Shown here one piece after another: positions 5,598 to 56,810 of a stretch of 64,000 bases of DNA; the stretch's first letter is position 1, and the number at the start of each line of letters is the position of its first letter. The notes beneath the pieces were generated by a model. The model was not told the origin of the DNA and made no database searches. It worked only from the letters and a program-made list of their open reading frames with translations. Made by a program: the position numbers and the translations under genes. Origin of the DNA: Obrimoposthia wandeli (taxonomy: Eukaryota); NCBI GenBank assembly GCA_977020255.1, contig CDROCS010003425.1, positions 1-64,000 on the forward strand, given 5' to 3'.

Positions 5598-5607
5598 TCA
5601 GAATCAG

Positions 5608-7938: not shown

Positions 7939-7998
7939 ACATCACACAACAACCAACCCTCAATCGAGCCCAAATTCAACATCACCCATCTCACAGCA

Positions 7999-10975: not shown

Positions 10976-11079
10976 ATAGTTGGAAGTTGGAGTTTAAAAG
11001 TCGTAACTGTAGAATTTGAATTAAAAAGGCTACGTTAAATTAAAAGGCTAAGTAAAATTACCTTGCTCTATTTTTTCAG

Positions 11080-17400: not shown

Positions 17401-18231
17401 AAAGTTGGCAGTATCAGCGAATATTCAATCCTAGCTATAAATGGCTGGGTAACTTACTGAAACAATGCCGTATCAGGAATTGTGGATTGCAATTTTTCCA
17501 CATGAACGAGGAATCCCTAGTAAGTGCGAGCCATTAGAATGTACACACCACCCGTCGCTTCTACCGCTACAACCGTCGTTTTCATCATAAGCACGTCTAA
17601 TTATAAATGACAGTTAATCGTCGGTTTAGACCCATGACGCCGGTTTTTACACCATTGATCAACATCATAACTAGAGTGTCCCAGGATTTTGGGGTGTCAA
17701 CAGCTAATTCTCGCAATAAATAGCAGAATTAGAAAAAAAATTAAAATGGAACTTTGTGTTGCACTTATTAAAAGCTACGCTGACTTTACTTACATACTGT
17801 ATATATATGCAAAACTCGTGACGTATAGTTCTTCAAGAAGATGACTAAGGTGGGGCTCTACCAGGGCGACACTTCAGTTTTCCCAACGTTGCCCTGTGAA
17901 CGGGTTATGTTGTTCCTCGAGGAGCGGAACAGGCCAGTGCCCACTATCGACTTAACAATGGATGACTGATGGAACATTGACACCTTATCTTTCCTTCTCT
18001 TTTCTTTTTCTAAATTTCTCATCCACACATTTTTGTATAAATACACGTTGAATAACATTCGTGACATTGTCCGAACATTATTCAAAATACACGAGTTTTG
18101 TCAAACTAGTGGGTATGTTTGAAGCGTCATCGAATGTTTGAAATCAAGTGGGGATTTTTTCTAAAATCTGGGACTAGTGAATTAAAATCGATACGTTCCG
18201 AGGACGTAACTTTTTTGAAACCCCCGAGATA

Positions 18232-22180: not shown

Positions 22181-23710
22181 TTACAACAACGTTGACCTAG
22201 ACGAATAGATGGATGTGCAGCTGATTGGAGATCTCTCTCCAGTACTTTGGCGGAGTCAACAAGGAGACGGACGAGGAAGAGTAGTAATATCGAGACGTGC
22301 ATCAAACGCACGTGGAGGTTGATCTCGTTGTGTCAGCCGGAGACAATTGTCGCTCCAGACTCTGATGAGGACCTCTTTTGTGCATTAGTGCAGTTTAAGA
22401 AAATCAACGAGGAACTTAAAACTTTGGTATTTTCACATAAAGCGACTGTTTTCTACGATAATTTTATAAGTTAGATTGAAAGAAATTTAGATGAAAAAAT
22501 TGCTAAATGTAGTGAGTTAAGTAGTGGATGAACTCTAGTCAGAATTCATGATGTTAGCTTTGTTTTCGGGAGACCATATATTCCTTCACCTAAATATATT
22601 CAACTCTCACGTTATATTGTTAGCATACAAAACAGTGATAACCTTTGCTTTCTGTATAGTGTGTTGGCCATACTCAAAAGGGATGTAATTACTGAGTACA
22701 AAGAGCGTGTCAGTAAATATATCCCTTTTTTAAATGAATTGCAGTATCATGGAATATATTTTCTTTTAAATTAACTGCAATATCAAAATTTGAACACATG
22801 AATAACTTAAGTATTAATGTATTCAAATATAATACTGATATCCCAGTTAATATAATAGAGGAAGAAATGTTTAAAAATCCTTTCGTAGATTTAATTTATA
22901 GGAGCAAAAAGGAGAGGACTTCAGTTAACTTAATTTTGCTTGAACGTACTAATAAATTCCACTATGTTGATATTCCCAATTTAGATCGTCTTCTAAATTT
23001 AGATAATAAAACCTTACTAGTTAGGATAAGGTGCAAGTTTTGTCATAAATGCTAACATGAATTCCTATCCGAGATCTCTTATAGCAAACATTTGACATTA
23101 TGTACATTGAATCCTGGTGATAAGGATATAAAATTCAGGGATTTGGCAAAATGCATATCCGTCGAATTCAGGGTGTATGATGAGTGTAGCAATGATCATG
23201 ACTGGCATAGATGGGGTTAATTTTAATTCTAGTGGATCTTGTTATTTGTGTGGTACCCAGTCTAAGTTAGAAATGATTCAGCATTTTTAGATGAATATGG
23301 AAATGAAGTAAATGTTGATGCGTTTTCGAAAGAGAAACTTTGAATTGTAACAATTCAACTTTATGGTTACAAGAAGGATGAAATTGGAACAAAAATTAAA
23401 ATTAATTTTTGTCTTATATTTTTTTTCTCTTAAAAATATATAATTTTGACCTACGTATTTTTGTCCTCCTAACATGCATAAAAATGTAGTCATTTATTAA
23501 TACAAAATTCGCATCTAAAATCTCATCTACGATAAATCGATTCTGAGGGGGTCAATATGGATTCATGTGGTCTTTTATAAACACTTCTAATAACTTAAAT
23601 TCATCCTTGGATGTCGGATGTGAAATTAATACACACATGTAGGAAATTTCACTCCATACACACATGTACGGTTTTAAAGAGGGTCTATTAAAACGAACGA
23701 TCCACCTAGT
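22181..23710 (+). mobile_element. Duplicate of the deleted Polinton relic
   Basis: Part of tandem unit 2 and near-identical to 13570-15099. Confidence 0.9.
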
Positions 23711-27850: not shown

Positions 27851-28981
27851 CAACATATTAGTATAATTTTGACTATTAATGTTCTTTTTCACTAAAACAA
27901 GTATCCTGTATTCTGATGAAAAACAGCTACCACATCATAATACCAGAAGTGTATTTAGAGATCGGGTATGTTTCTTTTTACACTCGTTTGTCATACCAAT
28001 GATATCAGAGACAATCAGTATAACTTTATGTTAAACCCTTTTCGAGCATAAATTAAAAAAACTTACAAAATTACTGCTGCAATCTTGGTACATTGAATTA
28101 TTTTTTCATCTTACCGTATTGGTGTGTTCTTTATTTTACTAATAATTGATCTACTTAGACGTACATTATCATTGCTGGTATCTTCACGAAGTAAGTTTTT
28201 TCTCTGACCATATAAACAAAGATTGTTTAACAAACTATTATAATTTTCTCTTGGGTATAAATTTTTGTTCTTTTATCGCTGTTTTTTCTAATTTAATTCC
28301 ATATTCAAATGGTTCTTGTAAATAAATGAAAACGTGGTGTGATGTAATGCAGGGTAGATAATTTATCAGCTCAGTTAGCTCTTATGTCGTAAGGGTCTGG
28401 CAACACCAAGACCGAATATCGATGAAACAGATCCGGGACCAATCGACGTAGACAAAACCCCTCTGAATGTGTCAACACGTGGAATATTGTCTCGTGGGTT
28501 GTTCCTCGACTAATCTATATGTTAGGGGAGTAGGTGGATGTGTCCGGTCTAATCCACACCCCCTCCCCCCTACTGTCCTTTAAAAGCGTACATGTGTGTG
28601 TGGAGTGAAATTTCGTGTAGGTGTGTAGAAAAATTTTCTACCCCCCCCATCTCAAACACTCAAAAAAATAAAATAAAAAAATAACTCCATTTAACACCCT
28701 GTAAATTTTAAAATCTCATAATGCTCCCAAAATTTTGATTAAGGTCCTGAGAGGCCAAAAAAATGGCCAAAGCGTGCCCTACGGGCCCGCGGTGGATCAA
28801 CGAGTAATAAATACAGGCTCGCGAAAAAATTTTCCTTATAAAAATTTATATCCATACATATATACAAGGTCATAAAAATATTTCTTTATAAGAATTTATA
28901 AGAAAGATACATATATAGGGTCACAAATTTTTTTTAAATAATCAACTACATAAATTCGAAATAATTTGCATTTTTGTTTGA

Positions 28982-29116
28982 TGAGTCATCAAATTAGTCA
29001 TCATGACCTTAAGTGATCTTGACCTCATGATGACCTAGACAACTTTGTACCCTTGACCTCATGATGACCTTAAATGACCTTGACCTCACGATGATGACCT
29101 CATAAGGTAATGACCT
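28982..29116. promoter_or_regulatory. Array of nine TGACCT (AGGTCA half-site) motifs plus TGAGTCA in the left subterminal region
   Basis: TGACCT at 29004, 29020, 29031, 29054, 29065, 29075, 29081, 29095 and 29111. Function is inferred only. Confidence 0.5.
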
Positions 29117-29561
29117 TAACTTGAACTGAAATGAGTTCATGAATTTTTTATACCATCCAAACATGTACAGTCAAAAAAATATTACTATTTTAAATCCAAA
29201 TCTTAACAAAATTTAAGAAAATATTACTATTTTAAATCCAAATATTAACAAAATTTAAGAAAATAACATAAATTCTTTGAATAATACGTTTTCATTGGAC
29301 GTTAAACTTATACAAGAAAATCTTAAGAAAATCTTAAGAAAATAGTTATATTTTCGAATAAAATATGTTTTATCCAATGACATTCCAGCATTCAAACATA
29401 GTTAAAAAAATGAGAAAAGCCTACTGATTTTCAAATAAATTATTTGATTAACCCGCTCTCATTGGACGACAAAAGAGGGGTTAGTCTATTATTTTTGTAT
29501 ATAAGGAAACCTCTTTTCATTATTTTTTCATAAATCAAATATCATTAATCAAGAAGCAAGA

Positions 29562-31635
29562 ATGTCAAATTTCAATAACGTCGATTTGGATGAAGAGACG
29601 GAGGTTCAGCTGTATGGAGATCTCTCTCAAGTACAGCAGCAAACGCCACCACCGGCGCAGTACATTGACTTACTTAGTCAAGACTCGTCGGTGGTGAGTG
29701 AAGGAGACGAAGGAGAAGCAGCAGCAAGAGCCCAACTGTTGCTAGAAGAAGAACCGCCATTGGCCAGCTCAACTCCAAGAGAACAACCAATGAGCGTGCG
29801 AGGTGGGGTACAGAGATCCCAATATATCTATCTGACTAGTCAGGATTCGATAGATAATTGGGAAGACTGTACTCCCAGGCTGAACACAGAAGCCAATCGT
29901 CCGGCAACTTCAGCAGTAGCAGCAAGGAGATCCAATCTCTTTGACAATTTCAAGGCGGCAATCAAATGCCCCTGGAAATTGATCCCGCTGTCTCAACCGG
30001 AGATAATACTGGCACCAGACTCAGACGAGGAGCTGTTTACTGATGACGTTCCGTCGGATGGGGAGGAGGAGTGGATACAGCCAAGTATCGGACCCCCGGG
30101 AGCCAACGAGTCCATGGTTGCAGAAATGGATGAAGATGAGTGGGATCTGTTCACTGACGAATGGATGGTCTCACTCCCTCTACAACTCCGACTCCGATAC
30201 CCAACAATACGGTGCCTGATCCATTCAGAAGGCCACAATCTCCGATACGTCCTGTTAGGAGAATAAAGGCGACGAATGAGGTTAGAAATCATTTATTTAA
30301 ATTGTTTTTTAATTTCATTTTTCAGAAACTTCAACTGGATTTGGCACCGTCAGTGACCACGATTGAGAGGCTAATTGAACCGCAATACTTGGCGAGTCAA
30401 TGTAGCCAGGATGATCCCAGGAGTGATCAGAGATACCTACCGACTCCGGCTAAAATTGAGGTATATTATTATAAATTAGTAAATTTATTTAATTATTCAC
30501 TTAGGAAGCTGAATTGGTGGAGGAAATTTGGGAGGAGGCATCTCGGAAACTACCTGTCGATAGGAAGCAAGCGGCAGTTAAGAAAGCTCGACGTCATCGA
30601 ATCAAAACCAATACAGTCCATCGGAAGAAGACCAAGTTGGTGAAACAGGCTAATCTGCCAGTCATCGAGGTAAATTATTTATATGTTTAAATTTTATTAA
30701 TGTTTTTTTGTTGCAGGAACCAATAATATTAACTGAGGAGACGTGGACCAAAAGTTCTCCTTTCCCGCATAAGCGAACGAGGCAGCTTACTGTACGGAAG
30801 ACACGGCATCTTAGAAAGGCGAAATCATGTCTGCTCAATTCGAGTGAAGTAACGATTGAGCGGCAGGAAAATCTTCCGTCTAAGATGATTGAGGTAATTT
30901 TTTTTAATTTTTTTTTTTTTTATTTAAATAAAATTTTATTTGAAATTTTATTTTTGTTTTCATTTGCAGGAACCTGTCCGGATAACTGAGGAGACTTGGG
31001 GAGAAGTTACTCCTTTCCCTAAGAAAAGGACAAAGCGGGCAGAGGTGAAGAAGACGAGGCGCGCGAGAAAAATTCGAACCTCAATTGGCCATTATTCTGA
31101 GGCGGTGATTGGCCAGCAGGAGATTCTCCCTCCTCCAATGGACGACGGGCCTATCTTATATGAGAGGATCCCAGTCTCGCCGATCGAGATAAGTCCGCAC
31201 TCGAGTCAACAACTCCTGCAGGATACTGCTTCTCCTCGTCCAACAACCAGCCAAAACTTGAAGAGGGCCTGGGATGACGCTGGTTTGGACGAATTCCTAG
31301 CGGAACTGGATACACCCGCAATGCTTCCAGATTCGCGTGGGCAACAGGATGCCGTCTCACGCCAGCTTCAGCGTGAGAAGGAGGAGAAACAGAAGAAAGC
31401 TCCGCGGAAGAGGAAGGCTACTGCTTCTATGTCCGGGCCATCAACATCGGCTGCACCTCCTCCCAAAAAGTTGCGGCAACTATTGCCAAAACCTGAGGGA
31501 AGGACAATTGCTGTACAGCAACCGGTGAAGCCGAAAAAGAAACCGGGCCGGCCAAAGAAGAAGGAACCAGTACCGCTTTCTCCTATAATACTTAGTCGGA
31601 GGGAATACGACCCCGATGATCCCAATGAAGACTTC
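29562..31635 (+). CDS. Polinton left-end multi-exon gene: acidic N-terminus, repeated basic exons, NLS-like tail; frameshift near 30160
   Basis: GT-AG introns at 30281-30325, 30461-30504, 30670-30716 and 30894-30969, all phase 0. Exons of 135, 165 and 177 nt keep the frame. A further donor is likely at 31636. TATATAAG lies upstream near 29499. Confidence 0.8.
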
Positions 31636-31700
31636 GTAAGGATTTTCAAAATTATAATTTATAAACATTAGTTTCTTGTGTTGTCTTTTTATTATTATTT

Positions 31701-31880
31701 ATTTTAGAATTTAGTAATATTAAAATATACTACTTAAGTTTATTAAAATAACAAGGTTAAAAATAAATTTTAGAATTTAATATTAAAATATCCTCCTTAA
31801 GTTTATTAAAATAACAAGGTTAAAAATAAATTTTAGAATTTAGTAATATTAAAATATCCTCCGTAAGTTTATTAAAATAA
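31701..31880. repeat. ~62 bp AT-rich tandem repeat, about 3 copies
   Basis: ATTTTAGAATTTAGTAATATTAAAATAT...TAAGTTTATTAAAATAA is repeated. Confidence 0.75.
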
Positions 31881-32074
31881 AGTTACCTTATTCGAATGTG
31901 ATTGGATTGTTAAGGAATAATTAATTTTTAGGATTAAATATAAATGCAATGATTAGTTATATATTTATTAAACTTCCATTTGATAAATATATTTTAATTG
32001 CTTGTGATTGGATTAAAAATATCTTTAATTTATATATATAAGTTCAAATTTATTAACATCTTCATAATTAAAAA

Positions 32075-32395
32075 ATGGAATTTATTAAAATGCAAAGTTT
32101 GATGACGAAGATCGAGGCAAATATAAGAATAAATGAGAAGAAAGGAGATTTACGAAAGAGGATCCTCAACCAGAATTTATATACTGCTGTCGCGACCGAG
32201 TGGAATCGTCGGGTGGAGATTCAGGACAGGCGGCTAGCAGAACGACGTCGGGTTGTGGAGTGGAACAAGAAAATCGAAATGGAAAAAAGGAAGGTGGAGG
32301 AAAAAAGAAGAGAAGAGACGGAGGATGTTCGGAGAGCAGCAAGGAAGCGAATCCTCCAGATTAAACCGGAAGAGGGTCCTTCCACAAAAAAATAA
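32075..32395 (+). CDS. Hypothetical charged coiled-coil protein (Polinton)
   Basis: 106 aa ORF directly after TATATATAAG and rich in E/K/R. Confidence 0.7.
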   Translation: MEFIKMQSLMTKIEANIRINEKKGDLRKRILNQNLYTAVATEWNRRVEIQDRRLAERRRVVEWNKKIEMEKRKVEEKRREETEDVRRAARKRILQIKPEEGPSTKK

Positions 32396-32528
32396 ATTTT
32401 ATAGATTATTATTTTATCTTTATTGATTATGTTATAAATTGTCTAAATACTACCTCGTCATTTTAATCAATTTTTGATTAATAGTTTTTCGTTATAAACA
32501 ACGGGATTTGCTACAGATTTGGGTAATT

Positions 32529-33017
32529 ATGCAGGAATATATCATAGATTTTGAGGCTTTCATTAACAAAAATGGGGATTATATTATAAAAGAATTATGT
32601 ATTATGGATGTATGCGACGTTTTTCATCCTTTGCATTTCATATTTCATATAGATATCCCATTTAAAAGTTTAGATTATAAGAAAAAATTTACTAATTTAT
32701 ATCTAACTAAATATTTCCATTTATTAAAATGGAAAGAAGGACATAAGGCTTTTTGTGAAATATGTATTTTCGATACTATTAAATCTAATTTTGAAATTGA
32801 AAATGGAATTTTTTATGTTTTAGATGACATGGATGGCAAAAAATATAAGACTTTAAAAAAATATTTTCCTAAATTGAGGTTGAATACTTTAAATATTTCA
32901 CGTGATCATCTATTAAATATTCCACAAAATATTTGCTGTCCATATCGTAATCATGGTGACCATTGCGCATATAAAAAATGTTTAAGTCTTTCTTATTATT
33001 ACTTGACATGTAGATAA
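32529..33017 (+). CDS. Probable DEDD-like (DnaQ/Maelstrom-type) exonuclease-fold protein
   Basis: N-terminal IIDFEAF...YIIKEL (DxE motif) and C-terminal CPYRNHGDHCA. Assignment from remembered motif pattern only. Confidence 0.5.
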   Translation: MQEYIIDFEAFINKNGDYIIKELCIMDVCDVFHPLHFIFHIDIPFKSLDYKKKFTNLYLTKYFHLLKWKEGHKAFCEICIFDTIKSNFEIENGIFYVLDDMDGKKYKTLKKYFPKLRLNTLNISRDHLLNIPQNICCPYRNHGDHCAYKKCLSLSYYYLTCR

Positions 33018-33029
33018 ACAATTCTTCTA

Positions 33030-33270
33030 ATTGGAGGAATTCATTATTAAAATTTACATTTATTTACAAATAAGCCTTTTGATTGGAGGAATAAAATTTT
33101 TTTCAACCTTTAATATATGAATAATCCTTTTCTTTAATTGGAGGAATAAAATTATTTTTTCAACCTATAATAGATTAACAATCCTTCTCTTTAATTGGAG
33201 GAATAAATTCAATTTTTTAATCCAATAGGAAAAGAGCATGTGTGCATAAATTTTAGTATATAAGCAAACA
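33030..33270 (+). promoter_or_regulatory. Promoter-like region: four ATTGGAGGAAT (CCAAT-box) repeats then TATATAAG
   Basis: Motif at 33030, 33082, 33137 and 33194 (about 55 bp period), with the TATA box roughly 45 bp before the ATG at 33305. Confidence 0.6.
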
Positions 33271-33304
33271 CTTTCTTCATTTAAATCCCCGACAATTTGA
33301 AATA

Positions 33305-34321
33305 ATGCCTATGGTAAGAATTTATTTGTATTATTTCCTTATTAATATTTATTATTTCAGATTACGTGTAACCTATTCCCTGCGTATTGCGGTGCTTCGG
33401 CTCCGCATGGAGGAGAGTTCTGCATGGAGACAATGTCTGCATACTACCGGACCAAGTCTCAAGGTGTTCTGTTCTTCGTCTGCCCCTTCTGCAGAACAAT
33501 GGAGGAGAAGGAGTTTCGAGAATTCTTCTGTGAACATCGAGCTCACCTATCGTGTTTCACGGCCAACAACAAGAAGAGGGATATCGTCCAATTGGTGCGC
33601 GATTCGCAGGCCGCTCGAGCTCCACCTCCATTTACAGTGGCAGTCAGTCTACCAGTTTATGGTCCTGCCATTGGTCCTTCTCTCCCGGCTCCTGATTCTG
33701 CTGCTGCCCCATCCACTCAAATGTCTAACAATGAGTGAATGAACGACATTTCCGAAGAAGATTTTGAGGAATTGGCACCAGCAACCCAATTCTCAAACAA
33801 TGACTGGATGCGAAATATCACCCAGTCAGATTTCGAGATGGAGCAGCCTCAATGGAGCGACAACACCTGGTTGGAGACAATCGAGGAATCAGATTTCGTC
33901 GAGATGTTGGACGACAGCTGGATGGATTTCATCAATGAAGAGGACTTCATTCCAGCTCAACTTGGATTGCCTTCATTAGGTATTTTTTATTATTATTTTT
34001 AAATTATATATTTTATTTTTTATTATATATATTTTATTTTTATTTTTTATTCAGGAAATACAGTTCTACAATCGTCATCTGCTACAACAGATATGCCTCC
34101 ACCATCGCGAGTGCCTACATCGATGTTAGCACGTCTTAGAGGTAATAATTTTTAAAAATATATTTATTTCAGCAGCACTAACTTCTACAACAGCCGCTTC
34201 TTCATCGGAAAGGTCAGCGGTCCCTTCAACATCATCTACAGTTGCCTCAACATCGGCAGCATCAACAATAGCAGCAGCTTCCACATCAGCTGCAATTGTC
34301 TCAACATCGGCAGCATGTCCA
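33305..34321 (+). pseudogene. Spliced 5' exons in frame with pPolB: RING-like Cys/His domain, acidic W/F repeats, Ser/Thr/Ala linker
   Basis: Introns at 33314-33360, 33980-34054 and 34142-34172 join MPM / ITCNLF...CGA..H..FC...VCPFCR / SNNE*MNDISEEDF repeats / GNTV / AALTST in frame with the ATG at 34322. One TGA at 33736. Confidence 0.7.
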
Positions 34322-37300
34322 ATGGCAGCACCTTCAACCTCAGCTGCGATTGTCTCAACTATTAATATAAATAGTTGTCTTCCCGTTCAATTAGGGGGAG
34401 GTTTGTCAGCGACAAACGGAAGAAAGAGGCGAGGCCAATTTCTTAATAAGGTCCCACCCAAAAAACGTAGAGAAAACGGTGCTACTATAGAGTATCACCT
34501 AAATAATAAATATGTTATAGTTAAGGTGCCATTAGGAAATGAAATTTTATTAAACGTAGGTGTAGATTCAAATATTGAAACTCTTTTAAAATCAGAAGTG
34601 ACTAAATTAGGACAGGCTAAGGTTCAATTTAGCGCAACAGTGCAGTTTAAAAATGTCAATGAGGAAACTAAAACTTGGGTAATTTCACATAAAGCAACTG
34701 TTTTTTATGATAATTTTGTAACTGAAATTGGAAGAAACCTGGATGAAAAAATTGCTAATTATAGCGAGTTAAGTAGTGGATGAACTCTAGTTAGAATTCA
34801 CGATGTTAGCTTTGTTCTAACAAAGTTCACTGACATGATATATCTTTCGGGGAGTTCATACATTCCTTCACCTAGATCTCTTCAACTTTCACGTTCCATT
34901 GTTAACGTACAAAACAGTGATAACCTTTGCTTTCTGTATAGCGTGTTGGCCATCCTCAAAAGGGATGTAATTACTGAGCATAGAGAGCGTGTCAGTAAAT
35001 ATACCCCTTTTTAAATGAATTGCAGTATCATGGAATAGATTTTCCTGTTAAATTAACTGCGATATCAAGATTTGAACATCTTAATAACTTGAGTATTAAT
35101 GTATTCAAATATAATACTGATATCCCAGTTAATGTAACAGATGAAGAAATATTTAAAAATCCTTTTGTAGATGTAATTTATAGGAGCAAAAATGAGGGGA
35201 CTCAGGTCAACTTAATTTTGCTCGAACAGAATAATAAATTTCATTATGCTGCAATTCCCAGTTTAGATCGTCTTCTAAATTTAGATAATGGAGCCTTACC
35301 GGTTAGGATAAGGTGTAAGTAGTGTCATAGATGTTTGCATGGATGTTTGCATGGATTCCGATCCGAGCTCTCTTACAGCAAACATCTGACATTATATTCA
35401 CTAAATCTTGATGACAATACGCTATATAGCATGCCTAAAGATAAGGATTTAAAATTCAGGGAGTGGGCAAAATACATACTCATTGAAATCAAGGTGAATG
35501 CTGATTTAAATCAATTTTAGCATTGCACGACCAGTATGAGAGTATTCACCTACCGGCTTCGGCAGGACTACTATTCTTAGGCCCCAATATTACACAGTAT
35601 CATAAATTTTCCGGTCCAAATTGTATTTTAGATTTTATGTTAAAATAGAAGAATTAGGAACAACAATTGTCAAACCGTGGTATGATCTTAATGCTCATCA
35701 AGCAATGATCATGACAGGCATAGACTGGGTTAATTTTAATTCTTGTAGATTATGTTATTTGTGTGAAACCCAGTCTAAGTTTGTCAGAGATCACGATTAT
35801 GTTACGGGGCGATACTTGGGAGTGGCGTGTATCCTCTGTAACCTTGGCCGTCGACTCCCTAAAAACCACGCATTCCCATCGTGTTTCATAACCTCAAAGG
35901 ATATGATTTGCATCATATACTTAAATATGCGTTGGGTACATTAAGCTCTTGGGAAATTTCACGTATACCTCAAACTTCAGAAAAATATTTATCTTTAACT
36001 GCATATACTGAATTCTGTAGTTTAAGATTCATAGATTCTCTGCAGTTTTTGAGCGGGTCTTTAAATAATTTAACGGCATCTTTAAATGCATGGCCAATTA
36101 CACAGTCAGTGTTCCCAGCTTCAGTTAACGATAAGGGGATTTTTCCGTATAAATTTGCGAAAACTTTCGCAGATTTAGAAAATACAACTGAAATCCCACC
36201 CATAACTGAATTTGAAAGTGTATGTCTTCAAGACTATAATGAGGCCCGTACATTTTGGGTGAATAATTGTCGAAATCTTTTAGAATATATGCTTTATTAT
36301 ATGAAGTTAGACATTTATCTTTTAGCTGATGTTTTTGAGTCCTTTCGTGTAAAATCTTTAGCAGAAGATGGGCTAGATCCCATGCATTTCTTTAGTTTAC
36401 CTGGTCTTTCATGGGCAACAGCAATAAAAACACTTAAAATTAATATCGAGTTACTGCAAGATCCCGCGATGCATCAAATGTATGATTATGGTGTTACGCA
36501 GTGGACTGACTTTTGTCAACAAACATCATGTTGTCAATAATCAATCCACGGAGATTCTGTATATCGACATTAATAATTTGTATGGGTGAGCGCTTACTCA
36601 ACCTCTACCTCATGCCAACTTTAAGTGGGTTTATGATGAGGAACAGTTGAATAAGTTGATGACAGATTTGGCTACTGTTGATACAGTTTCATCCGACGTC
36701 GGCTATTTGGTTGAGGTGGACATAAAAATCCCTCCCAATGTGCATGATAAATTAGATGATCTTCCAGTAGCGCCTGTTCATCAATGCCCACCTAATTCAA
36801 AGGTTAAGAAATTATTGTTAACCCATGAAGACAAGTTGAATTATGTTGTGCATTGGCGGCTTCTTCAATTCTACTTAAAGTTGGGAGCGAAAGTTACTCG
36901 AATTCATCGTGCTATAAGCTTCAGTCAAAACTTTGTGTTTAAAGACTATATTGAGAAGAATTCAAGAAAACGTAATTTGGCCACTAGCAAATTCGATCGA
37001 GATTTTTACAAGTTAAAAAGTAATAGTCTCTTTGGAAAAACTGTAGAGGACTTGCGGAAACGTATTTGTCTACGGTTTTGCAATGATGAGCGTAAACTAA
37101 TAACATATACTAGCAAGTACAACTTCAAGCGTAGTTTTACAATTGCAGATGACTTGGTAGCAGTGTTATTAGGAAAACAGAGTATTTGTCTCGATCGACC
37201 GAGTTATATAGGTCAAACGGTTTTAGACATTTCTAAACTTAGAATGTATGAGCTTCAATACATAGAATTGGAGAAATACCGACAAGAATTTAATTGTGAG

Positions 37301-37786
37301 ATTAAAATCGCAGCTGGGGACACTGACTCTTTCTTTTTAGAATGTAGGAATGTTAGTTTAAATAATCAATTATTACCAGCAATGTTTAGGGACAACTTAC
37401 TAGATACCCATAAATATCCCGCTAACCATCCTCTACACTCTATGAGTTTAAAGGACATTATCGGGAAATTTAAGGATGAAAGCGAGGGACAGGTTTCGTA
37501 TGATGATTGTATTTTCCTACGCCCTAAATGCTACAGTTTACATGCATCTAATAATACATGTTCAATGAGAGCAAAGGGTGTGGGAAGAAACAATCTTACA
37601 CATGAGGCCTACCGGAAAGTTTATGATACTGGGTGTATTGAAAGCGTTGAGCAAACTAGATTTATTTCAAGAGCCCATCAACTGTATTCCCATAAATCAA
37701 CCAAAATCGCTTTGAGTAGTAATGAGGACAAGCGCTTTTGGGTAGAAAAGAACGCTAGCCTGGCTTATGGACACTTCAGAATTTAA
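34322..37786 (+). pseudogene. pPolB: Protein-primed DNA polymerase B, disrupted
   Basis: GSSYIP...IVNVQNSDNLCFLYSVLA, RDHDYVTGRYLGVACILCNL, FHNLKGYD, RFIDSLQFL, KGIFPY, YMKLDIYLLADVFESFR, YIDINNLYG*, KLKSNSLFGK, GDTDSFF, GKFKDE, LRPKCYS and RAKGV. Several stops and frameshifts. Confidence 0.97.
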
Positions 37787-37956
37787 ACGGTTTTCATTTT
37801 TTGATTTTTTTAGTTTAGTTTTTTAAAATTTTAGATCCTTATGGCACTTAGACTCTAACTTATTTGTTATTTCAATACTTTTTTAGGATGGACCTTATTT
37901 ATTATGCCTTATCTTTGCTGACATATCTCATTGTGATGTTGTGATTAATAAATGTA

Positions 37957-38828
37957 TTAAATTTTTTTTTTAGATATCCATATTGTTCTCAAAAGTGGAA
38001 CTCGCTGTCCTCCTACAAGCGTTGGTTCTATTAAATTAGTATAAATATATAAATGATTAACAGCATTTAAAAGTTTTGCCTTATTTTTAGCTTTTTTGGT
38101 TTTTATTGTATGGGTTTCAAAGGTATTTCTGTTTAAACCAAGGTTTTTAGCGAGTTTATCATCAAATGAAACTCGTTTTATATTGCTCTTTACTGTAAAC
38201 ATTAATTTACCATTTAATGTTTCACATTTATCCAAATATTCACTACATTCCTTCTGTATTAATTTACAGAAATTCACTTCACTATCTATTTTATAATCTT
38301 TTGAAAACGTTTTCAGTTCCACTACAGTCTTTGGTCTCGTTTCAAGTAACAACACTTTTGCTACTCTACCAGGAACATTTCTAACCGAATTAGATGAGAT
38401 AATATCCCGTTTATTACGAGCTACTGTTTGTTCACTATCAAAACTGAATTGAAGAGCTTCTTTTTTAGATTCAAAATTAATTTTAATAACTTGAAGAAAT
38501 TTTAATCGATTTTTAAATCTGACTTTGTTATTTTCAAATATTACTTTCACTTCTTTATCTATACAATTGTAATAGAATTGTCCTTTACTTTCAAACCCGA
38601 TCACAACTTCAGTTGTTTTTTCATGATCAACTTCTTTTGTAAACGAAATATGTGAGTTTTTTTGATAGTAATTGGAGAATAATAAAAAGAAAATTCTGCT
38701 AAAGCCACTTCCCATTCTCCTTGGAGATTTATAGAATTTTCCCAATCGATAATAAAGCTACTAGCGTCATTATCTGGTTGAGTCTTCGGACATCCGTTAC
38801 TTGGTAAAACCATATACATAGACTTCAT
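37957..38828 (-). pseudogene. Polinton minor capsid (penton-like) protein, frameshifted and C-terminally truncated
   Basis: N-terminus YMVLPSN...DNDASSF...INLQGEWEVALAEF. Near the end, LYIYTNLIEPTLVGGQRVPLLRTI runs into an A-tract and stop. Confidence 0.75.
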
Positions 38829-39853
38829 ATTATATTAGATGTTGATATCCAAGTTGGGTCTGAATAACCATGCCATTTAACAAAGTATTGTTTATGTTTA
38901 CCTGTACCCTTAGATTTTAATATTTTTTGAATACGGAAAACGCTAGGTTTATTTGATATTACTTGTAGTTCTTGCTCGTAAAATTTACCGTGAACGATAT
39001 TATTGTCAGCATCTTTAATAGTATACATTATTGGATTACTCTTTTGATCAATTTTACTTATACAAAATATTTCATCGCTCCAATTCTGATCAAAGTTTTT
39101 AATAAATGGAGTAGAGCTAATTTTTGAAATTCGAACATATTCGTTTTTCTTATATTTAGCTTTTTTAATTTTATCTTTTTTATTCCTGTTCATCCAAATG
39201 TCCATAGAATTTTTATTAGTAACATCAACAGGTCTCATTCCCTTGAGACCTCTATGTTCAGAGTGATTACATGCATGTATTATTTTAGGTAAAACTTGGA
39301 TCCATTTTTTATTTCCTTCTTTTGTGAAATACTTTTTTATTCGATCTCTTAGAGTACGATTAAATCTTTCTACTACTGCTGCTTTGTATTGTGAAAACAC
39401 AGAGTAATGATTTATATTATTTTGTTTAAATAATGATTGAACTTGCTTATTATAAAATTATTTTCCTAAATCAGTTTGCACATTTTGTGGAATGTCCTCT
39501 TTTAATATTTCTTTAATGGCTTCAAGCATAGCTATTGAAGACTTTGCTTTAACTGGAATTGCACGAGCAAACCTGCTAAATACATCAATACATGTTAAAA
39601 TATATCGATATCCCTTATTAATGGAAGAATATGGGATCATCTCCATCAAATCCATTTGCCATAAATTATTAGGACCGCTGGTTTTGTAAGCTCTAGTTGG
39701 AAACCTTCTTCTCATCGGCTTGTTCAGACTGTAGGCTAACTGATCGCTCAGCCATTTCTGCGTTTTCTTGTAATTTTGTTTTGTTCTTTTTGCTAATTTT
39801 GAAACTCCTGTGTAGCCAATTGGATCTTTTGGATTGAACCATATCTTCTCCAT
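38825..39853 (-). pseudogene. int: Retroviral-like integrase with C-terminal chromodomain; one nonsense codon
   Basis: WQMDL, LTCIDVFSRFA, QTDLGK*FYN, VVERFNRTL and the chromodomain IQKILKSK...YFVKWHGY. ORFs 39458..39907 and 38825..39400 join through a single TAA. Confidence 0.95.
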
Positions 39854-39939
39854 TACAACAATTTGAATAGAAAGAAAATTTAAGTTTAGGTAAAGAAGGG
39901 CTAGCACCCATATCTTTAGCTGATTTTAGAAATAATTGT

Positions 39940-40269
39940 TTATGAACGTGTCGCAGCTATAATACTACTGATAATTGAAGCAACAACTGGAATAACAGCC
40001 CCTATGAAACCACCATTCTGTTTAAGAATAATATTTCGTTTCCTATTTTTACTTTTTACATTAGCAATATCTAGAAGAGTTTTTCTATATTTCTTTAATA
40101 TATTTTTCCGATTTCCAACTTTTACTCGACCCAAAACTATATTATATAAAACTTCCAATAAATCATCTACAACAAAGGATGGGAATGTTTTAAGAATAAT
40201 CATTCTCTTATTAGAAGAGGCTTTGACTAAAGCTTTAAAATAGGGTATGCTTCTTTGTATTTTCTTCAT
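39940..40269 (-). CDS. Small basic Polinton core-like protein with a QxGG/F processing-type motif
   Basis: K/R-rich body ending KQNGGFIGAVIPVVASIISSII, which resembles adenovirus pX-type C-termini. Confidence 0.55.
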   Translation of the reverse strand: MKKIQRSIPYFKALVKASSNKRMIILKTFPSFVVDDLLEVLYNIVLGRVKVGNRKNILKKYRKTLLDIANVKSKNRKRNIILKQNGGFIGAVIPVVASIISSIIAATRS

Positions 40270-40454
40270 TTTAATAAAAAAGGTTCAATTTAAATATTGT
40301 TTATATTCGAAGCCATTTAAGTTTTTTTTTATTTTTAACTACAGATTTGATTAAGTGTTCACTTCTTTTTTCTTAATGATTCTTTTTTTTGATTTCTTAG
40401 ATTTTACTTTACGTTTTACTATCAACTTTGTAAAAGGCATTGCGAATTTATTTT

Positions 40455-41095
40455 TTATAATTGTTCTCAATTTGTTTATAAACAGTTACTCCCTTAGAAT
40501 TAAATATGTCTGTTAAAACACGTAAATCATCTGGGCAAGCTTGTGTAAAGTCAATAAATATATACCCATGTGCTTGATTAGCAGCATCGTGGAATTAATC
40601 AACTAGAAAGTTCTTATTTTGAGGAAATGCCTGTCTGGCCACAAAATCAACAACTGTTTGATCTCTAGGATTTTTAAATAAAACTAAGTAATGTACATTA
40701 AGATTTCTTGTTCTATGGTGACCTCCTTGGTGAAACAGATTTTGAGTGATAAATATAACTGTAACTTCACGATGTCTTGCAATCTTTGTAAATAAATTAT
40801 TAAAGTCCGATTCCTTGTTAGCCTCCTCATACAAATCATCAATTATTATTACATCTTCTTTTTTCAATCTTTCACACCAATTTGCATCAAATCCTTCAAT
40901 AAATTTTATACCCTTTAACTTGTAAACTTCGGTTTTGGTTAACCCGCTTTCCCCTCCTCCACCATGATGCCAATAAATATTTTTGAAACTAGATTTGAAA
41001 ATAGATTCATTTTGCAACAATTTACAGACGAAATGTGTCTTTCCACTTCCACTTGAGCCAACTATTTGAAATACAGCATTATTATTTAGCTCCAT
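40455..41095 (-). pseudogene. A32/FtsK-type packaging ATPase; one nonsense codon
   Basis: Walker A GSSGSGKT, Walker B IIIDDL, ARHREVTVIFITQN and LFKNPRD. Continues after the TAA at 40595 as FHDAANQAHGYIFIDF...DLRVLTDIF. Confidence 0.93.
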
Positions 41096-41132
41096 TGCAT
41101 ATACTCTTTCATTTTTAATATTGTTTATATTA

Positions 41133-41414
41133 TCATAGAAGTTTCCTTATTGAAATGTACAATGTTAGAGCTATTGTAGATGAAATACAAAAATTAATTA
41201 ATGAATATTTGGCTATAATTTTATTTATTTGTGTACGATTTCTAAATTCTCGAATAACGTGTGATCTAACCAATATTTCAATGTTATCTCTTGTTATATC
41301 ATTATTTTTTAATTCTGATAAAATTTCTTTACCCCTAATTTTTCCAGAAAATATTTCATCGGCAAGCCGATCCACTTCATTGTCTCTATTTATAGTATTA
41401 TTCATTTGAAACAA
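41133..41414 (-). CDS. Hypothetical protein with a C-terminal hydrophobic helix
   Basis: 93 aa ORF co-oriented and overlapping between the TBP-like gene and the ATPase. Confidence 0.5.
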   Translation of the reverse strand: MFQMNNTINRDNEVDRLADEIFSGKIRGKEILSELKNNDITRDNIEILVRSHVIREFRNRTQINKIIAKYSLINFCISSTIALTLYISIRKLL

Positions 41415-41938
41415 TAAGTTTAAACGGGGTTTGTTTATAGAAAAAAGATAACAAGATGTAATAAGATATATTTTCTAAAATCAAATCAACTATGTCTGGA
41501 TAATCAAAATTTTTCAATCCCAATATCATAACTTTACCACTGGAAAATATATTTATACATAGCGGTTTAAACTTCAAATAACTGAGAGCAGGAAAAATTT
41601 CTGGTTCAAACATGCATTCTTCTTTCATTTTCTCTGCAGTTTTAAAAAGATTTATCTGTTTCCCGAGATTAGCCGAAATCGTGATTGATTGTATTGCAGT
41701 GATTTGAATTTCAAATGGTAAATTGAACCCAAGCATTGGTATTTTGCATCCCATAACACGACAATTTCCTAAAAGAATTCAATATGAAAATAAAATAAAA
41801 AAACTAACCTGTATGAAAAATAACAACTGCGAAATTGTCAAATCTTTCCACATATTGTCTCGGCTTCCATTCATTGAATGGTAAGTATGAAACATCATCT
41901 TCTGTTCTACCTTTATAATTTATATTTACGAGTTTCAT
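41398..41938 (-). CDS. TATA-binding-protein-like (two-repeat TBP fold), 166 aa, one 40 nt intron
   Basis: Exon 41938-41809, intron 41808-41769 (GT..AG, phase 1), exon 41768-41398. Repeat 1 reads KLVNINYKG...AVVIFHTGNCRVMG. Repeat 2 reads IQSITISANLG..INL...MFEPEIFPALSY...INIFSSGKVMILG. Confidence 0.8.
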
Positions 41939-42187
41939 TAGACTGAAATTGTATTCTATAAAATCTTCTTTATATATGTCTGAACCTGCTTTTTTATTAC
42001 ACGTTTCTTGTAATTATCTTGCAAACCTATTATAATTGGATGATATATTTCTTCCAATCAATTTTGATTTTTAATATAGATTTAGTCCAATCAAATTCAA
42101 TGCTTTAGTTATATTAACCAATGAGATTCATGTCTTTGTTAGAAATTAGTATAAAAGAATGCGCCATTGGAGGACAAATCACAGTAA

Positions 42188-42664
42188 ATGCATTCATATC
42201 AAAGACAATTATCAACAATGGATGATAGCCAACGGGTATTAAGCGATGACGAAGAAATGTTTGAAGAATCGGATAAGGATATGTATGAAGAAGTGAAACA
42301 ATATTTCAAATACAAAGTCAGATTCTTGAAGAAGGCTCAACTGATTGCTTTAGTAAATCCTGTGACAATTGAAAGAAGAAAGTTCAGCTACTATCTATCA
42401 GGTATTCAAAAACCTGATTTTCAATATCTTAAACAGAAAATAGAAAAGGCAGTTCCGAATTTTACTTTCAATAAGAACGAATTTTATATCCGAGGAGCCG
42501 ATGAAGCATTTCTAGAGGACTATGGAAGATATGTTGATATTGATGCGTTTCCGAAAAAGAAGCAATGGACTGTAACAATTCGACTTTATGGTTACAAGAA
42601 AGATGAAATGGGAACAAAGTTGCCTATGTGGAAAATTGAACGTGCTCATATTTCTATGTTTTAA
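42188..42664 (+). CDS. Hypothetical protein, possibly OB-fold ssDNA-binding; paralog 1
   Basis: TATAAAAG upstream. C-terminal WTVTIRLYGYKKDEMGTKLPMWKIERA is shared with the next ORF. Confidence 0.55.
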   Translation: MHSYQRQLSTMDDSQRVLSDDEEMFEESDKDMYEEVKQYFKYKVRFLKKAQLIALVNPVTIERRKFSYYLSGIQKPDFQYLKQKIEKAVPNFTFNKNEFYIRGADEAFLEDYGRYVDIDAFPKKKQWTVTIRLYGYKKDEMGTKLPMWKIERAHISMF

Positions 42665-42797
42665 CTTTTGTGTGTAATAAATTGTAATCGGTTTTACTAT
42701 GTTTCTTTCATTTAATAATCAGTTTTATTTGTATCTTATTTGTATCTTATGTGTATTTTTTATAAACATTGTTTTTAATCAGTTTCCTTATTTTAGA

Positions 42798-43202
42798 ATG
42801 GATAAAAGATGTGTAGCAAATTTTTATTATCCAGAAAGAATTTCAAAAGGAAAACTATGTAATATATTAAAGAGGCATCAAATTATACGAGTTATGAATC
42901 CTGTGTAAATATCAAAAGTGGAGAAAAAATATCTCATCGAAATTTTAACAACAACTGATTTTGATCAACTGAAAAATATTTTGGGATTTTACATTCCTGA
43001 TTATGTATATGAAGGAAATTGTTTCGAGCTTGAAACTGATCCTAGTCTGGATTTTAAAGATGATCTAGGATATTTGATTGCTCCAATTCTAGATGAAGAA
43101 CTATGGAATATCTCAATACGTCTGAATGGATATTTTGCTGATGACGGGAAAATGCAGCCTCTCTGGACTTTGAGTGAAGCCAATATGTTGTTTTATGTTT
43201 AA
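42798..43202 (+). pseudogene. Paralog 2 of the preceding protein; one TAA
   Basis: MDKRCVA...RVMNPV*ISKVEKKY...WNISIRLNGYFADDGKMQPLWTLSEA aligns with LVNPVTIERR...WTVTIRLYGY...PMWKIERA. Confidence 0.6.
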
Positions 43203-44399
43203 TAAATATTTTGAAAAATAATTTTGTCTCGTATTTGTTTTTTGCTCCTCTAAATTATATAGATCTGACCGATTTTTCTCCTCTAAATTCTAAAACTGAC
43301 ATAGATATTTAACATGTAGTAATTTATTAATCTAAAATATTTCTTAAAAATAGTAGTAATATTTGAAATCTCGTCTGCGAAAAGCCGTCGGGGTCAATAT
43401 GGATTCTCGTGGTCTTCTCTAACCACTTTTGAGATTCATGGTAAAAGTTTAACAAATATAGTGGGGGGGTACCCCTTCCTTCCCCCCCTTTGGGTGGAAT
43501 GGAGACACACCTACACGAAATTTCACTCCACACACATGCACGGTTTTAAAGGACAGTAGGGGGGAGGGGGTGTGGATTAGACCGGACACATCCACCTACT
43601 TAGGGGGTACACGAATTTCACAAAGAATTTTACTCGTAATGAATCTTCTATCGATTTCGCTAAAATAACTATATTTAACTTAGCACACTTAAACTTCCTA
43701 AAATTACTACAGAATACACAATATGGTTGACAATTTTCTATGCGTATACTTTTATACGCCTACTGCTATAATCACCCTTCAAATTATTTCTCGTGTCTTT
43801 CTATCCGTCTATCTAACTCTTTAATTTAATATTTTATTGCCAACTAATTCAATAACGTCGTTTTACTCGAAATGTACTTAATAATCAAACGTTTTTTTTA
43901 AATGTACTTAAAAATTCAATTCGTCTTTACTCAAAAATGTACTTAAATATTCAGTTCGTCTTTATTCAAAAAATTACTTTAATAAAATTTTGTTTTTTGC
44001 TCACCAGTTTAAATTAAATATCTGTAGTTCAGAATTGGCTAATTTGAATATCTGTAGTTCTGAATAACCAAGAATTAATTTCTCTTTTTATATCAAATTT
44101 ACTCACCTCTCACTTCTCGCTTCTCGCGGCCTCTAAAAATGGAAGATGGCGTCTGCATCTCGAAGTATTCCTGTCTGGGTGCTTCACGAACTAATGAAGT
44201 CTGAGTGCAAAATACCATTAAAAGATATGTTACAAATAAGAATAAAGATTGGATAAAATAACTGCATGTCAACTGTTTGCTGATTTGGATATTGACTAAG
44301 AAGCAAAATTATTAAAAAAAACAGGTATGCAGCACGAAAAATCAAACTATCCTTGAAGCAAATGTCTAAATGTCTAGCTGGACTGAAAAGAAACTCCAA

Positions 44400-54758: not shown

Positions 54759-56810
54759 TTATAAAATTACGCTGTGGACCAGTTCAATTATACATCCACA
54801 AAACGGGCATTCTATAACTACAGAGAGGCACTTTAAACACATCACATGACCACATGTAACGAGAGCATATTCGATTGGTTCGCTCATACAAATTTCACAG
54901 GCTACAAATACACCTCCAGAAGTAGAAATTCGAGACTAAATAGAAGATAAAAGATTTGAAAGTCAACTGGAATCTTACATTTGTTTCTGCATTGTACAAA
55001 ACGTTCCAGCACTCGGAATTCTCTTCTGTTAAATGAATAGGTTTTTTGCGTCCCTGATTGAAGTAATACAAATAAGTAAACATCACAATTCTTACCAAAT
55101 TCAGAATATTAACATCTGCTTTCTTCTCCACCAAATATTTTATGATTTCTAATTTTCCATTCTTTGCTGCTAAATGCAGTGCAGAAACTTTGTTCTATAC
55201 TCAAATAAATTCAATATAACCAAATCAAAAACCTTACCGAATCTAGTTCATTTACATTAGCTCCCTTTTCCACTAGATATTTAACAATTTCAGTATGCCC
55301 GTTAGAAACAGCCCTATGTAATGGAGTTCGTCCTACTGAATCTGTTTTTTCTACATTAGCTCTCTTTTCTAACAGATAGTTAGCAATCTCTGGTGTTGGG
55401 AGCTCTAACGCCATATGTAGAGGTGAAAGCTTTTTCTATAAAACATTAATTTGAATATTGAATTTAAACATTACGGCATCAACTGCGTCTACATTCGCTC
55501 CATTCTCAACTAGAAATTTTACTATGTCAATCGATCTCCCTAGAACAGCCTTATGTAATGATGTATGGTTATTCTATAAAGGATAACAATAGACAGAATG
55601 TAGTACGAAATCTTACATTTTCTAAGGCCTCAATGTTTGCATTCTTTGCCAACAAATATACAATAATATCTAGTTTCTTCTCGAAGACTGCTGAATGAAG
55701 GGGTGTCCATTTGCTCTAAATAAAGTTCTCAGTAACGACTTCACAGAACATTACCCAGCTAACTCCATCTATGTAAGCTCCATGATCCACTAAACATTTC
55801 ATAGTTTCAATTCGTCCATGAGCAACAGAACAGTGTAATGGGGTTAATGTACCCTAAAAATAAACATAATAGAAACAAAGAATATAATTAAAAACAATAT
55901 CTGCTGCATTCACATCCGCCCCATTATCCAACAAATATTTAACGATATCAGTATTGCCATCTCTGACTGCGAAATCCAAGGGTGTAGTTTGGTCCTGCCC
56001 AAAGTTAATTGGATATAGTTAAAACTACCTTATCTTTTGTATTTACATCTGCTCCATTCTCCACTAAACATCTAACACTTTCAAAACATCCATATGTTGC
56101 TGCCAAAAACAATGGGGTACGGTCCATCTACAGGGGATAAATATTGTGAGAATGGAGAGAACTATCTTACATAAACAGCTTGATCGACAATGGCCTTCTT
56201 CGACACCAAATATAAAACTATGTCTGTCAGCCCACATTTAGCTGCCATTTGAAGGGATGTCATATTCCGCTAGATAAATGTTAGGCTAAAGTTACAATCA
56301 AACAATACCGAATTAACTGCATTAACATTCGCTCCATTCTCTACTAAAATTTCCACACTTTTAATACACCCATTAATAACAGCCCTGTGTAAAGGAGTAA
56401 AATTCGACTAATAGCTAAATATTATGAATAACGACGAATAAAATGTAACCGTATCCTTTGCATTAACATCTGCTTTCTTCTCCACTAAATATTTTGCAAC
56501 GTTTAATTTCATATGCTCAATTGCAATATGTAGAGGAGAACTTGGAAACTGATAAAATTCATTTTTGTCATTTTAAAATCAAATAATACTTTATATGAGG
56601 TAACATTTGCTCCTTTCTCATAAAGAAACTTCACAATATCGATACCTGCATACTTTACAGCATAATTAAATAGGTTTGATATTATCTGAATGAAAATGTA
56701 ATATAAATTTTCTTCGAAAAATGTAAACCTCATTTTTGTAGTGACTATTCTCTCCTGTTGCAATCAAATCCTGATTATATAATCTCTGTACGTCCTTTAT
56801 ATTGTCTGAC
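54759..56810 (-). CDS. Host ankyrin-repeat (about 12 repeats) plus C-terminal RING-HC protein, probable E3 ligase; 5' end unresolved
   Basis: Mostly 99 nt exons, each one ankyrin repeat (TPLH..A..G...V..L...GA.VN), separated by phase-0 GT-AG introns of 34-43 nt. Last exon 54759-54935 encodes CEICMSEPIEYALVTCGHVMCLKC...CPFC then a stop. Confidence 0.92.

Follow-up and report, generated by a model that had tools for sequence, protein, structure and literature searches.

Short introns of spliceosomal type in the polymerase and other genes of a Polinton from Obrimoposthia wandeli

The window analysed here, a stretch of 64,000 nucleotides from Obrimoposthia wandeli, contains a Polinton/Maverick element whose genes are interrupted by short AT-rich stretches, which raises the question of whether these stretches are introns. 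The element family has short GT-AG introns in four genes: gene 1, the TBP-like gene, pPolB (at its 5' end) and the putative protease gene. Judging from the sequence, we think it very probable that the host's major spliceosome excises them, that host RNA polymerase II would make the transcripts concerned, and that the polymerase and protease need splicing for their start codons.

The element and its genes

The window copy and the parts referred to below are:

28529..43600, no strand: decayed Polinton/Maverick copy, 15,072 bp, TIRs ~97 bp, AG...CT ends, 6-bp TSD
29562-30280, 30326-30460, 30505-30669, 30717-30893 and 30970-31671, + strand: gene 1, five exons, all junctions phase 0
33256..33313, + strand: TATA-like box (identical in 29/34 rows) and pPolB exon P1, 9 coding nt (33305-33313), first ATG in 32/34 rows
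33361..33979, + strand: pPolB exon P2, Cys/His, likely zinc-binding domain and acidic repeats, omega 0.47
34055..34141, + strand: pPolB exon P3, 87 nt, stop-free in the spliced frame in 32/34 rows, omega 0.37
34173..37786, + strand: pPolB exon P4, Ser/Ala/Thr linker, QLGG motif at 34388, then the polymerase (PF03175), with several stops and frameshifts
37961..37967, - strand: site of a 2.25-kb deletion, where other copies have a 128-aa gene, the putative major capsid gene and the putative protease gene with a 42-nt intron
38825..41146, - strand: integrase, protein-X-like gene and packaging ATPase (PF00665, PF04665, weak PF05829), collinear with the relative L124
41398..41938 (41938-41809, 41768-41398), - strand: TBP-like gene, two exons (PF00352)

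The TSD, TAGGGG, flanks the element on both sides. Together with the TIRs and two opposed gene modules carrying pPolB, rve integrase, packaging ATPase and putative capsid and protease genes, it gives the element the organization of animal (adintovirus-like) Polintons. The integrase scores 34.2 bits against PF00665 (cut-off 32.6) and the A32/FtsK-like ATPase 30.1 bits against PF04665 (cut-off 22.8). The protein-primed family B polymerase matches PF03175 above the cut-off in two pieces and is collinear with L124 pPolB. The putative capsid gene is a 415-aa ORF in sibling copies (57-58% to relatives); its label is based on size, position and a weak PF21738 match of the relative L141 (E = 0.037).

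Copies of this family are very common in the genome (4,442 first-look candidates, the best 40 at 97-100%). The window copy is decayed, with stops, frameshifts and the 2.25-kb deletion. A search with its diverged fragments returned matches at 80-85% only, which added more diverged copies and did not support a separate old subfamily. Scans of viral contigs gave no credible relative of the element. A possible acceptor ahead of the ATG at 42799 is readable in 2 copies only.

Conservation of splice sites and reading frame

In the window copy, as the preliminary description had proposed, there are eight introns, all GT..AG, 84-96% AT and in phase at each junction:

30281..30325, + strand: I1, 45 nt (44 nt in 31/46 rows), GT in 45/46 rows, AG in 44/46
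30461..30504, + strand: I2, 44 nt, GT 46/46, AG 42/46
30670..30716, + strand: I3, 47 nt, GT 44/46, AG 42/46
30894..30969, + strand: I4, 76 nt (family 65-86), GT 41/46, AG 44/46
33314..33360, + strand: I5, 47 nt, phase 0, GT 32/33, AG 33/33
33980..34054, + strand: I6, 75 nt, phase 1, GT 31/34, AG 34/34
34142..34172, + strand: I7, 31 nt, phase 1 (family 47-48 nt in 19/34 rows), GT 31/34, AG 32/34
41769..41808, - strand: I8, in the TBP-like gene, 40 nt, phase 1 (38 nt in 17/37 rows, 40 nt in 19/37), GT 35/37, AG 36/37

Seven of them lie within 29562..34321, where that description had placed all eight; the eighth, I8, is outside. Two of the lengths it gave are not the usual ones in the family: the 45 nt of I1 and the 31 nt of I7, a length seen in 1 of 34 rows. 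A blind intron scan of the element returned 8 donors on coding strands plus one antisense match in non-coding DNA, compared with a mean of 1.0 and a maximum of 4 in 30 block-shuffled elements.

We compared splice sites with intron interiors among 33-45 family copies per region, one of the checks that had been proposed at the outset. None of the 32 splice-dinucleotide columns has a variant common to at least 3 copies, versus 74 of 309 intron-interior columns (p = 4e-4), a comparison in which the copies are related, their shared variants are not independent, and the AT-rich interiors align poorly. A second comparison, with exonic GT/AG columns, gave 0/28 versus 130/788 (p = 0.015). The GT-AG ends are thus under selection. 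Only four of the eight introns have a branch-point-like motif at a distance of 16-20 nt from the acceptor, against an AT-rich background.

The exons tell the same story about the frame. Internal-exon length modulo 3 is kept in 41/46, 43/46, 37/43, 23/33 and 30/34 rows; the lengths of I4, I6 and I7, in contrast, occupy all three phases. The spliced frame is the sole stop-free frame in E1a, E1b, E2, E3, E4 and E5 and one of two in P3; in P2, the window copy has one stop in it. By shared variants, 9 of 11 exons are under purifying selection in the spliced frame, while singletons are neutral (270 synonymous to 313 non-synonymous shared exon variants, versus 349 to 1,034 for singletons; p = 2e-19). 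Such selection is not seen in E2 and E4 (omega 0.94 and 1.03), and on E1b it is non-significant (p = 0.3). Removing the introns also gives a frame that matches uninterrupted homologs of TBP, pPolB and the protease. Four sequencing runs from one sample were genomic-DNA-like over 29400-33900; none of the joints listed (15 of 313) matches an intron, and these data have no bearing on splicing either way.

On these sequence features, we regard the introns as real and of spliceosomal type, probably of the major (U2) class. Spliceosomal-type introns imply nuclear transcription with splicing, as the preliminary description had argued, and its warning about ORF-only annotation holds too, since gene 1, TBP, pPolB and the protease would come out of it split or truncated.

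Gene 1 has an acidic N-part and basic repeats, with a frameshift near 30160 in the window copy. It has no family match and no outside homolog, and an atlas search with E5 was empty, so the evidence for its four junctions comes from family data. A single unit is repeated in E3, E4 and the beginning of E5, and the gene probably grew by duplication of a phase-0 exon together with its intron. In the window copy, the exons of gene 1, P2 and the 107-aa ORF contain neither an LxCxE nor a CR1 Rb-binding motif (as defined in PMC8502044), and an E1A/Oncoid reading of gene 1 was dropped for that reason.

Start codons of the polymerase and putative protease

The introns had been thought to be confined to accessory or regulatory genes and the 5' exons of pPolB. 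We found none in the integrase, protein-X-like or packaging ATPase genes, and the polymerase core, like the integrase and ATPase, has no intron-sized insertion relative to a distant relative; the putative protease, however, is also split. In two core genes, then, an intron separates the start codon from the rest, after 9 coding bases in pPolB and 5 in the putative protease.

Polymerase mRNA would join the 9-nt coding exon, the zinc-finger-like/acidic exon, the 87-nt exon and the main exon. In unspliced RNA, the start would lie ~150 codons past QLGG, within the presumed terminal-protein region. Between I7 and QLGG there is no in-frame Met in 21 of 34 rows; in the other 13, which include the window copy, a Met in the linker could serve as the start of a nearly full polymerase that dispenses with the upstream exons. 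Splicing would be required for the full DNA polymerase, and likely for the protease.

P2 is stop-free in only 10/33 rows. Six of 16 relatives have its domain and the pPolB N-region in a single ORF (E = 2e-13 with an independent profile). Word-based protein searches with P2 and with the L124 pPolB N-region gave no matches; an exhaustive search succeeded. An atlas search with P2 gave leads under 0.9 only. The single-sequence predicted fold of P2 has a pLDDT of 36, and an alignment-based model (pLDDT 71) has CxxC and two His set among two strands and one helix; fold searches with that model reached Z of at most 2.9, with no viral match.

The protease intron of this family is new here. In full-length own copies it is 42 nt long, and it is present in 8 of 10 own copies and in L124 and L135; L141 has the donor, and relatives L137, L139, L145 and L147 lack the intron. 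The putative protease, a candidate adenain/Ulp1-like maturation enzyme, has conserved His, Asp, Gln and Cys residues, and weak matches were obtained to PF00770 (E = 0.038, for L135) and to the pS273R protease (E = 0.038).

In distant Polintons from metagenomes, the protease and TBP sites are likewise occupied by introns, and another intron lies just ahead of pPolB–for example, L124 has a 49-nt phase-1 intron just before the pPolB QxGG motif, and L141 a 40-nt intron at the TBP site with an unrelated interior. Aligned with 7 uninterrupted homologs, the two TBP exons meet with a single Gly between them, and the junction is uninterrupted in 35 of 42 metagenome loci. Trees of ATPase and TBP are mostly unresolved and do not decide on a single gain of the TBP intron. 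Because the sites are shared with elements whose proteins are 45-75% identical and whose intron interiors are unrelated (own versus L141, p = 0.76), at least these gains are old. Conservation of the introns in the polymerase and putative protease genes extends across a capsid clade with good support, and they have persisted through transposition. Conserved splice sites, and intron sites common to distant relatives, therefore indicate that the introns were inherited and did not arise by decay.

Alternative explanations and known systems

Probably, active ancestral elements acquired the introns and retained them as ordinary constitutive ones, which stay short as the host's short-intron class and a compact genome would both allow. 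If the AT-rich stretches were instead spacers between small ORFs, or post-insertion damage resembling introns, the decay of the window copy, the 3n lengths of I1 and I6 in it and the neutrality of E2 and E4 would fit; we find this hardly credible, given that all eight are present in nearly all copies down to ~75% identity, that E2, E3 and P3 lack a Met near the start for separate proteins, and that the junctions in TBP, pPolB and the protease are spanned by relatives with no interruption there. Recent insertion of a host intron-generating transposon (introner) is very improbable too. Introners are reported in dinoflagellate polinton-like elements (PMC11957031), and 6 of 28 pairwise comparisons among the eight introns align better than shuffles, a weak test in that shuffling destroys the A-rich to T-rich polarity common to all of them; against this, the sites are shared by distant elements whose intron interiors are unrelated.

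Constitutive introns also compare favorably with a regulatory gate tuned to the host, in which splicing the 5' mini-exons only in certain tissues or stages would turn the polymerase and protease on, a role that germline splicing has in the Drosophila P element. We consider such a gate unlikely. The separated start codons would suit it, as would the symmetric internal exons of gene 1, with E4 missing in 3/46 rows (which have a fused I3/I4 intron), and the donors GTAAG, GTAAA and GTTAG, which also occur in host CCT and ankyrin introns. The splice sites, however, look strong and constitutive, and nothing in the sequence points to intron retention. The sizes speak against tuning as well. Our yardstick was the following gene:

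54936..56728, - strand: host ankyrin-repeat/RING gene, 13 introns of 34-43 nt

Contrary to what had been suggested, only the TBP intron (38/40 nt) falls in this class when family-typical lengths are taken; five others are 44-48 nt and two ~75 nt. The element introns are slightly longer than a sample of 23 hand-picked short host introns (p = 0.039). A small gene finder gave implausible lengths at 7 of 12 host CCT loci; the five plausible ones supplied nine short introns, and a sixth locus one more. Relatives from unrelated metagenomes have introns of the same sizes (37, 39, 40 and 49 nt). We are equally doubtful of a broader proposal, that in a clade of TBP-encoding Polintons the start codons of the replication enzyme and maturation protease lie behind ancient 5' introns whose regulated splicing gates replication and particle formation, as a small-scale forerunner or parallel of adenovirus E2B splicing. 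If the gate were real, the lineage would be largely misread by intron-blind virus screens.

A likeness to the adenovirus early-gene layout had been drawn, and part of it survives. The annotation of HAdV-37 pTP consists of 9 nt followed by a main exon (PMC2397415), and adenovirus pTP and polymerase have common 5' exons (PMC11304566); the 9-nt first coding exon of pPolB resembles E2B in layout, and we claim no homology of splice sites. The intron in the putative maturation protease (a morphogenesis gene), the TATA-like boxes of individual genes and the local introns of 38-76 nt differ from adenovirus, where kilobase splices from one shared leader serve two genes.

Polinton core genes are described as intronless in the literature on vertebrates (PMC8097293, citing Kapitonov and Jurka 2006) and nematodes (10.1101/2022.07.12.499685), as are core genes of protist endogenous viruses (PMC10120064, PMC8547959), and large surveys are described as running prokaryotic gene callers on that assumption (PMC10120064). 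Unlike these animal Polintons, the element has a split pPolB and putative protease, and in its pPolB an additional zinc-finger-like domain precedes the presumed terminal-protein region. It thereby departs from the definition of an 'intact' vertebrate Maverick, in which all core ORFs are intronless (PMC8097293). Nematode Mavericks are described as having intron-containing cargo (wasp/msft-1 proteases, KRMA kinases) between TIR and core genes (10.1101/2022.07.12.499685), the position of gene 1; their split genes are read there as host-derived, whereas here element-born genes with uninterrupted relatives are also split. Spliceosomal introns in integrated or nuclear DNA viruses are described for the intron-rich mirusviruses, an unrelated realm (PMC12768974), and for introner-bearing polinton-like elements (PMC11957031); dinoflagellate introners are mostly read as post-integration, whereas the introns here were inherited through active lineages under selection.

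Conserved introns in the polymerase and putative protease that are kept through transposition imply transcription in the nucleus and splicing by the host. They also mean that intact members of the clade can be scored as broken or truncated, and the N-terminal domains of their polymerases missed. The nine junctions offer RT-PCR or RNA-seq markers of when and where a Polinton is expressed, separable from read-through DNA signal amid thousands of genome matches.

Short introns in a Polinton

The element and two of its genes lie as follows.

28529-43600: Polinton element, 15,072 bp, delimited by ~97-bp terminal inverted repeats and a 6-bp target duplication
29562-31671 (+): gene 1, exons E1a, E1b and E2-E5, introns I1-I4
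41398-41938 (-): compact TBP-like gene, ~150 aa, two exons

The element is a Polinton, and what is new here is introns in its core genes. Pfam matches above cut-off identify its protein-primed family B polymerase (pPolB), rve integrase, A32-type ATPase and TBP-like protein. Copies abound in the genome: there are 4,442 first-look candidates, the best 40 of them 97-100% identical. The window copy has decayed: gene 1 has a frameshift, pPolB has stops and frameshifts, and the ATPase and integrase have one stop each. It also lacks a 2.25-kb stretch holding putative capsid and protease genes, which is complete in 7 of 10 fetched sibling copies and partial in 2.

All eight introns that the preliminary description had placed inside the element were recovered, at the lengths it proposed. 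Its placement of them within 29562-34321 holds for seven, on the plus strand; the 40-nt intron lies outside that interval at 41769-41808 (-). A blind scan of the element returned these eight introns on coding strands and one antisense match, versus 1.0 match per shuffled element (30 shuffles, maximum 4). A small gene finder called the same four gene 1 introns in all five copies tried, adding an extra call in one of them, and recovered the same three introns in the single pPolB copy tried. The introns are very probably real features, with strong evolutionary support.

The internal exons of gene 1 (135, 165 and 177 nt) are all phase 0. Repeats make up E3, E4 and the beginning of E5, and E4 is absent from three related copies, which have one fused intron. 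With an acidic part and basic repeats, the product of gene 1 may be a nuclear regulator or bind DNA.

Conservation and selection among copies

Splice-site conservation, one of the checks originally proposed, was assessed in alignments of the window with 45 copies of gene 1, 33 of the pPolB 5' region and 36 of the TBP-like gene, drawn from 40-match lists rather than the whole family, with 72-99% identity. Between 89 and 100% of rows retain the splice dinucleotides. Variants common to at least three copies occur in 0 of 32 splice-dinucleotide columns versus 74 of 309 intron-interior columns (P = 4 x 10−4), and for the seven plus-strand introns the comparison is with 130 of 788 exonic GT/AG columns that have them (P = 0.015); because the copies are related, column and substitution P-values overstate independence. 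Shared indels are triplet to non-triplet 22:15 in exons and 3:26 in introns, and most exonic non-triplet indels are compensating gaps in one repeat, where the net frame is kept in 30 of 34 rows.

For shared substitutions in the spliced frame, omega is 0.11-0.54 in 9 of 11 exons (E2 and E4 of gene 1 have 0.94 and 1.03) and at least 0.95 in the other two frames where computable, and singleton substitutions are near neutral overall. Spliced-frame selection therefore acted on the exons in the lineages that spread, and decay post-dates insertion.

The 5' end of pPolB

When the part of pPolB that follows its QLGG motif (34388) was used in an exhaustive search, 16 proteins matched, and six of these have a Cys/His domain in the same ORF. 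Across the 1,053 stop-free stretches in the window, a profile built from five of the six matched exon P2 only (E = 2e-13), so P2 is, on sequence comparison, the first domain of pPolB. In a metagenomic relative, L124, whose pPolB is 44% identical, a phase-1 intron of 49 nt stands immediately ahead of the QxGG motif. In the family, 29 of 34 rows share an identical TATA-like box ahead of pPolB. In 21 of 34 rows no in-frame Met occurs between the last pPolB acceptor and QLGG, but the other 13 do have one in this linker, which counts against a need for upstream exons. In the single long frame examined, 149 codons beyond QLGG are passed before the first Met, which by position would fall within the terminal-protein region as described in PMC11161782.

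In the proposed mechanism, host RNA polymerase II would start at the TATA-like boxes and the major spliceosome would excise the introns; spliced pPolB mRNA would consist of 9 coding bases, then the Cys/His-acidic exon, an exon of 87 nt and finally the main exon. QxGG motifs occur in pPolB, in the protein-X-like gene (39943-40284 (-)), in a 128-aa gene of the siblings and in L124 pPolB. Proteases of this type follow a Gly-Gly cleavage rule; possibly these motifs are sites of protease cleavage, which would release an N-terminal extension of pPolB. The pPolB relatives P0012, P0013 and P0020 have Tyr/Phe/Leu-rich starts, which look like intron read-through by the gene caller.

Introns in relatives and the host

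A ninth intron interrupts the putative protease gene (weak profile matches, E = 0.038 twice; catalytic residues align): in 8 of 10 siblings five coding bases precede a 42-nt GT-AG intron, and the other two lack the region. Among metagenomic relatives, L124 (37 nt) and L135 (39 nt) have an intron at this site, and in L141 the donor is visible ahead of the contig end; the gene is uninterrupted in L137, L139, L145 and L147. In an eight-row capsid tree a 100/100 branch parts intron bearers from L137, L145 and L147, and its midpoint root leaves gain versus loss unfixed. The suggestion that integrase, ATPase and polymerase core lack introns was borne out, with no intron-sized insertion relative to L124 or L135. 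Nor was any seen in the capsid, penton-like, protein-X-like and exonuclease-like genes or in pPolB from QLGG on, except that the penton-like gene has an in-frame coding insert of 13 residues and one insertion occurs in a single copy. The L135 contig also carries a ubiquitin-conjugating enzyme gene (PF00179; 225-722 (-)).

The TBP junction is spanned in alignments with seven TBP-like proteins of public assemblies, which have one Gly between the two exons. By a motif test of 42 metagenome loci, 35 are uninterrupted, 4 are not scorable, 2 are cut at a contig end and show a 3-nt gap, and one (L141) has, at the identical phase-1 site, a GT-AG intron of 40 nt whose interior sequence is unrelated. 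Many of these loci (L118-L159) lie beside Polinton-type genes. TBP-like and Oncoid genes are treated in PMC8502044 and 10.1101/697771, the former appearing in their figure legends.

Family-typical intron lengths are 38/40, 44, 44, 47, 47, 47-48, ~75 and ~75 nt. The host ankyrin gene has 13 introns of 34-43 nt, and introns in the five host CCT loci whose protein lengths are plausible measure 37-51, 69-105 and 142-854 nt. The idea that splicing is tuned to this host found no support: the Polinton introns fall within the broad short class of the host but slightly exceed the length of 23 hand-picked host introns <100 nt (P = 0.039), and relatives from unrelated samples have introns of the same sizes. 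The host is probably an animal, because its CCT-eta exon matches the top PDB entries with ~464 bits and the last one with 367, which we take to be mammalian and yeast, respectively.

The full-text literature searched describes no spliceosomal introns inherited in the polymerase or protease genes of Polintons; Repbase and the 2006-2007 founding papers, which may annotate exons, were outside that search. PMC8097293, 10.1101/2022.07.12.499685, PMC10120064 and PMC8547959 present intronless core genes and nematode cargo genes with introns. Introners are treated in PMC11957031, and PMC12768974, PMC11304566, PMC2397415, PMC12220804, PMC11296320, 10.1101/2023.08.22.554363 and PMC8363768 were also covered.

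Elsewhere in the window, 47319-47597 is an old piece (80%) of the gene for the putative major capsid protein, which the main copy has lost, and a small ORF starting MGASP (39693-39911 (-)), similar to one in L141, overlaps the integrase start in a different frame. Gypsy-like LTR retrotransposon pieces, with ORFs that are presumably RNase H and integrase-like, and further unnamed ORFs occupy 615-9081; they include a 701-aa ORF with a dual-specificity phosphatase domain (PF00782, E = 2e-36), and a lone 100-bp Polinton terminal-repeat fragment (94%) lies within Gypsy-like coding sequence at 1503-1602. An 8.6-kb tandem duplication (~9030-26400, units 95-100% identical) carries in each unit a minisatellite together with a Polinton remnant that is old and internally deleted (~82%; 13570-15068 and 22181-23679). 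In the host assembly (G000), uninterrupted and nearly full-length matches to chaperonin lie on 21 separate contigs (e.g. L165-L171); the single one translated resembles bacterial GroEL, and the assembly may include bacterial contigs.
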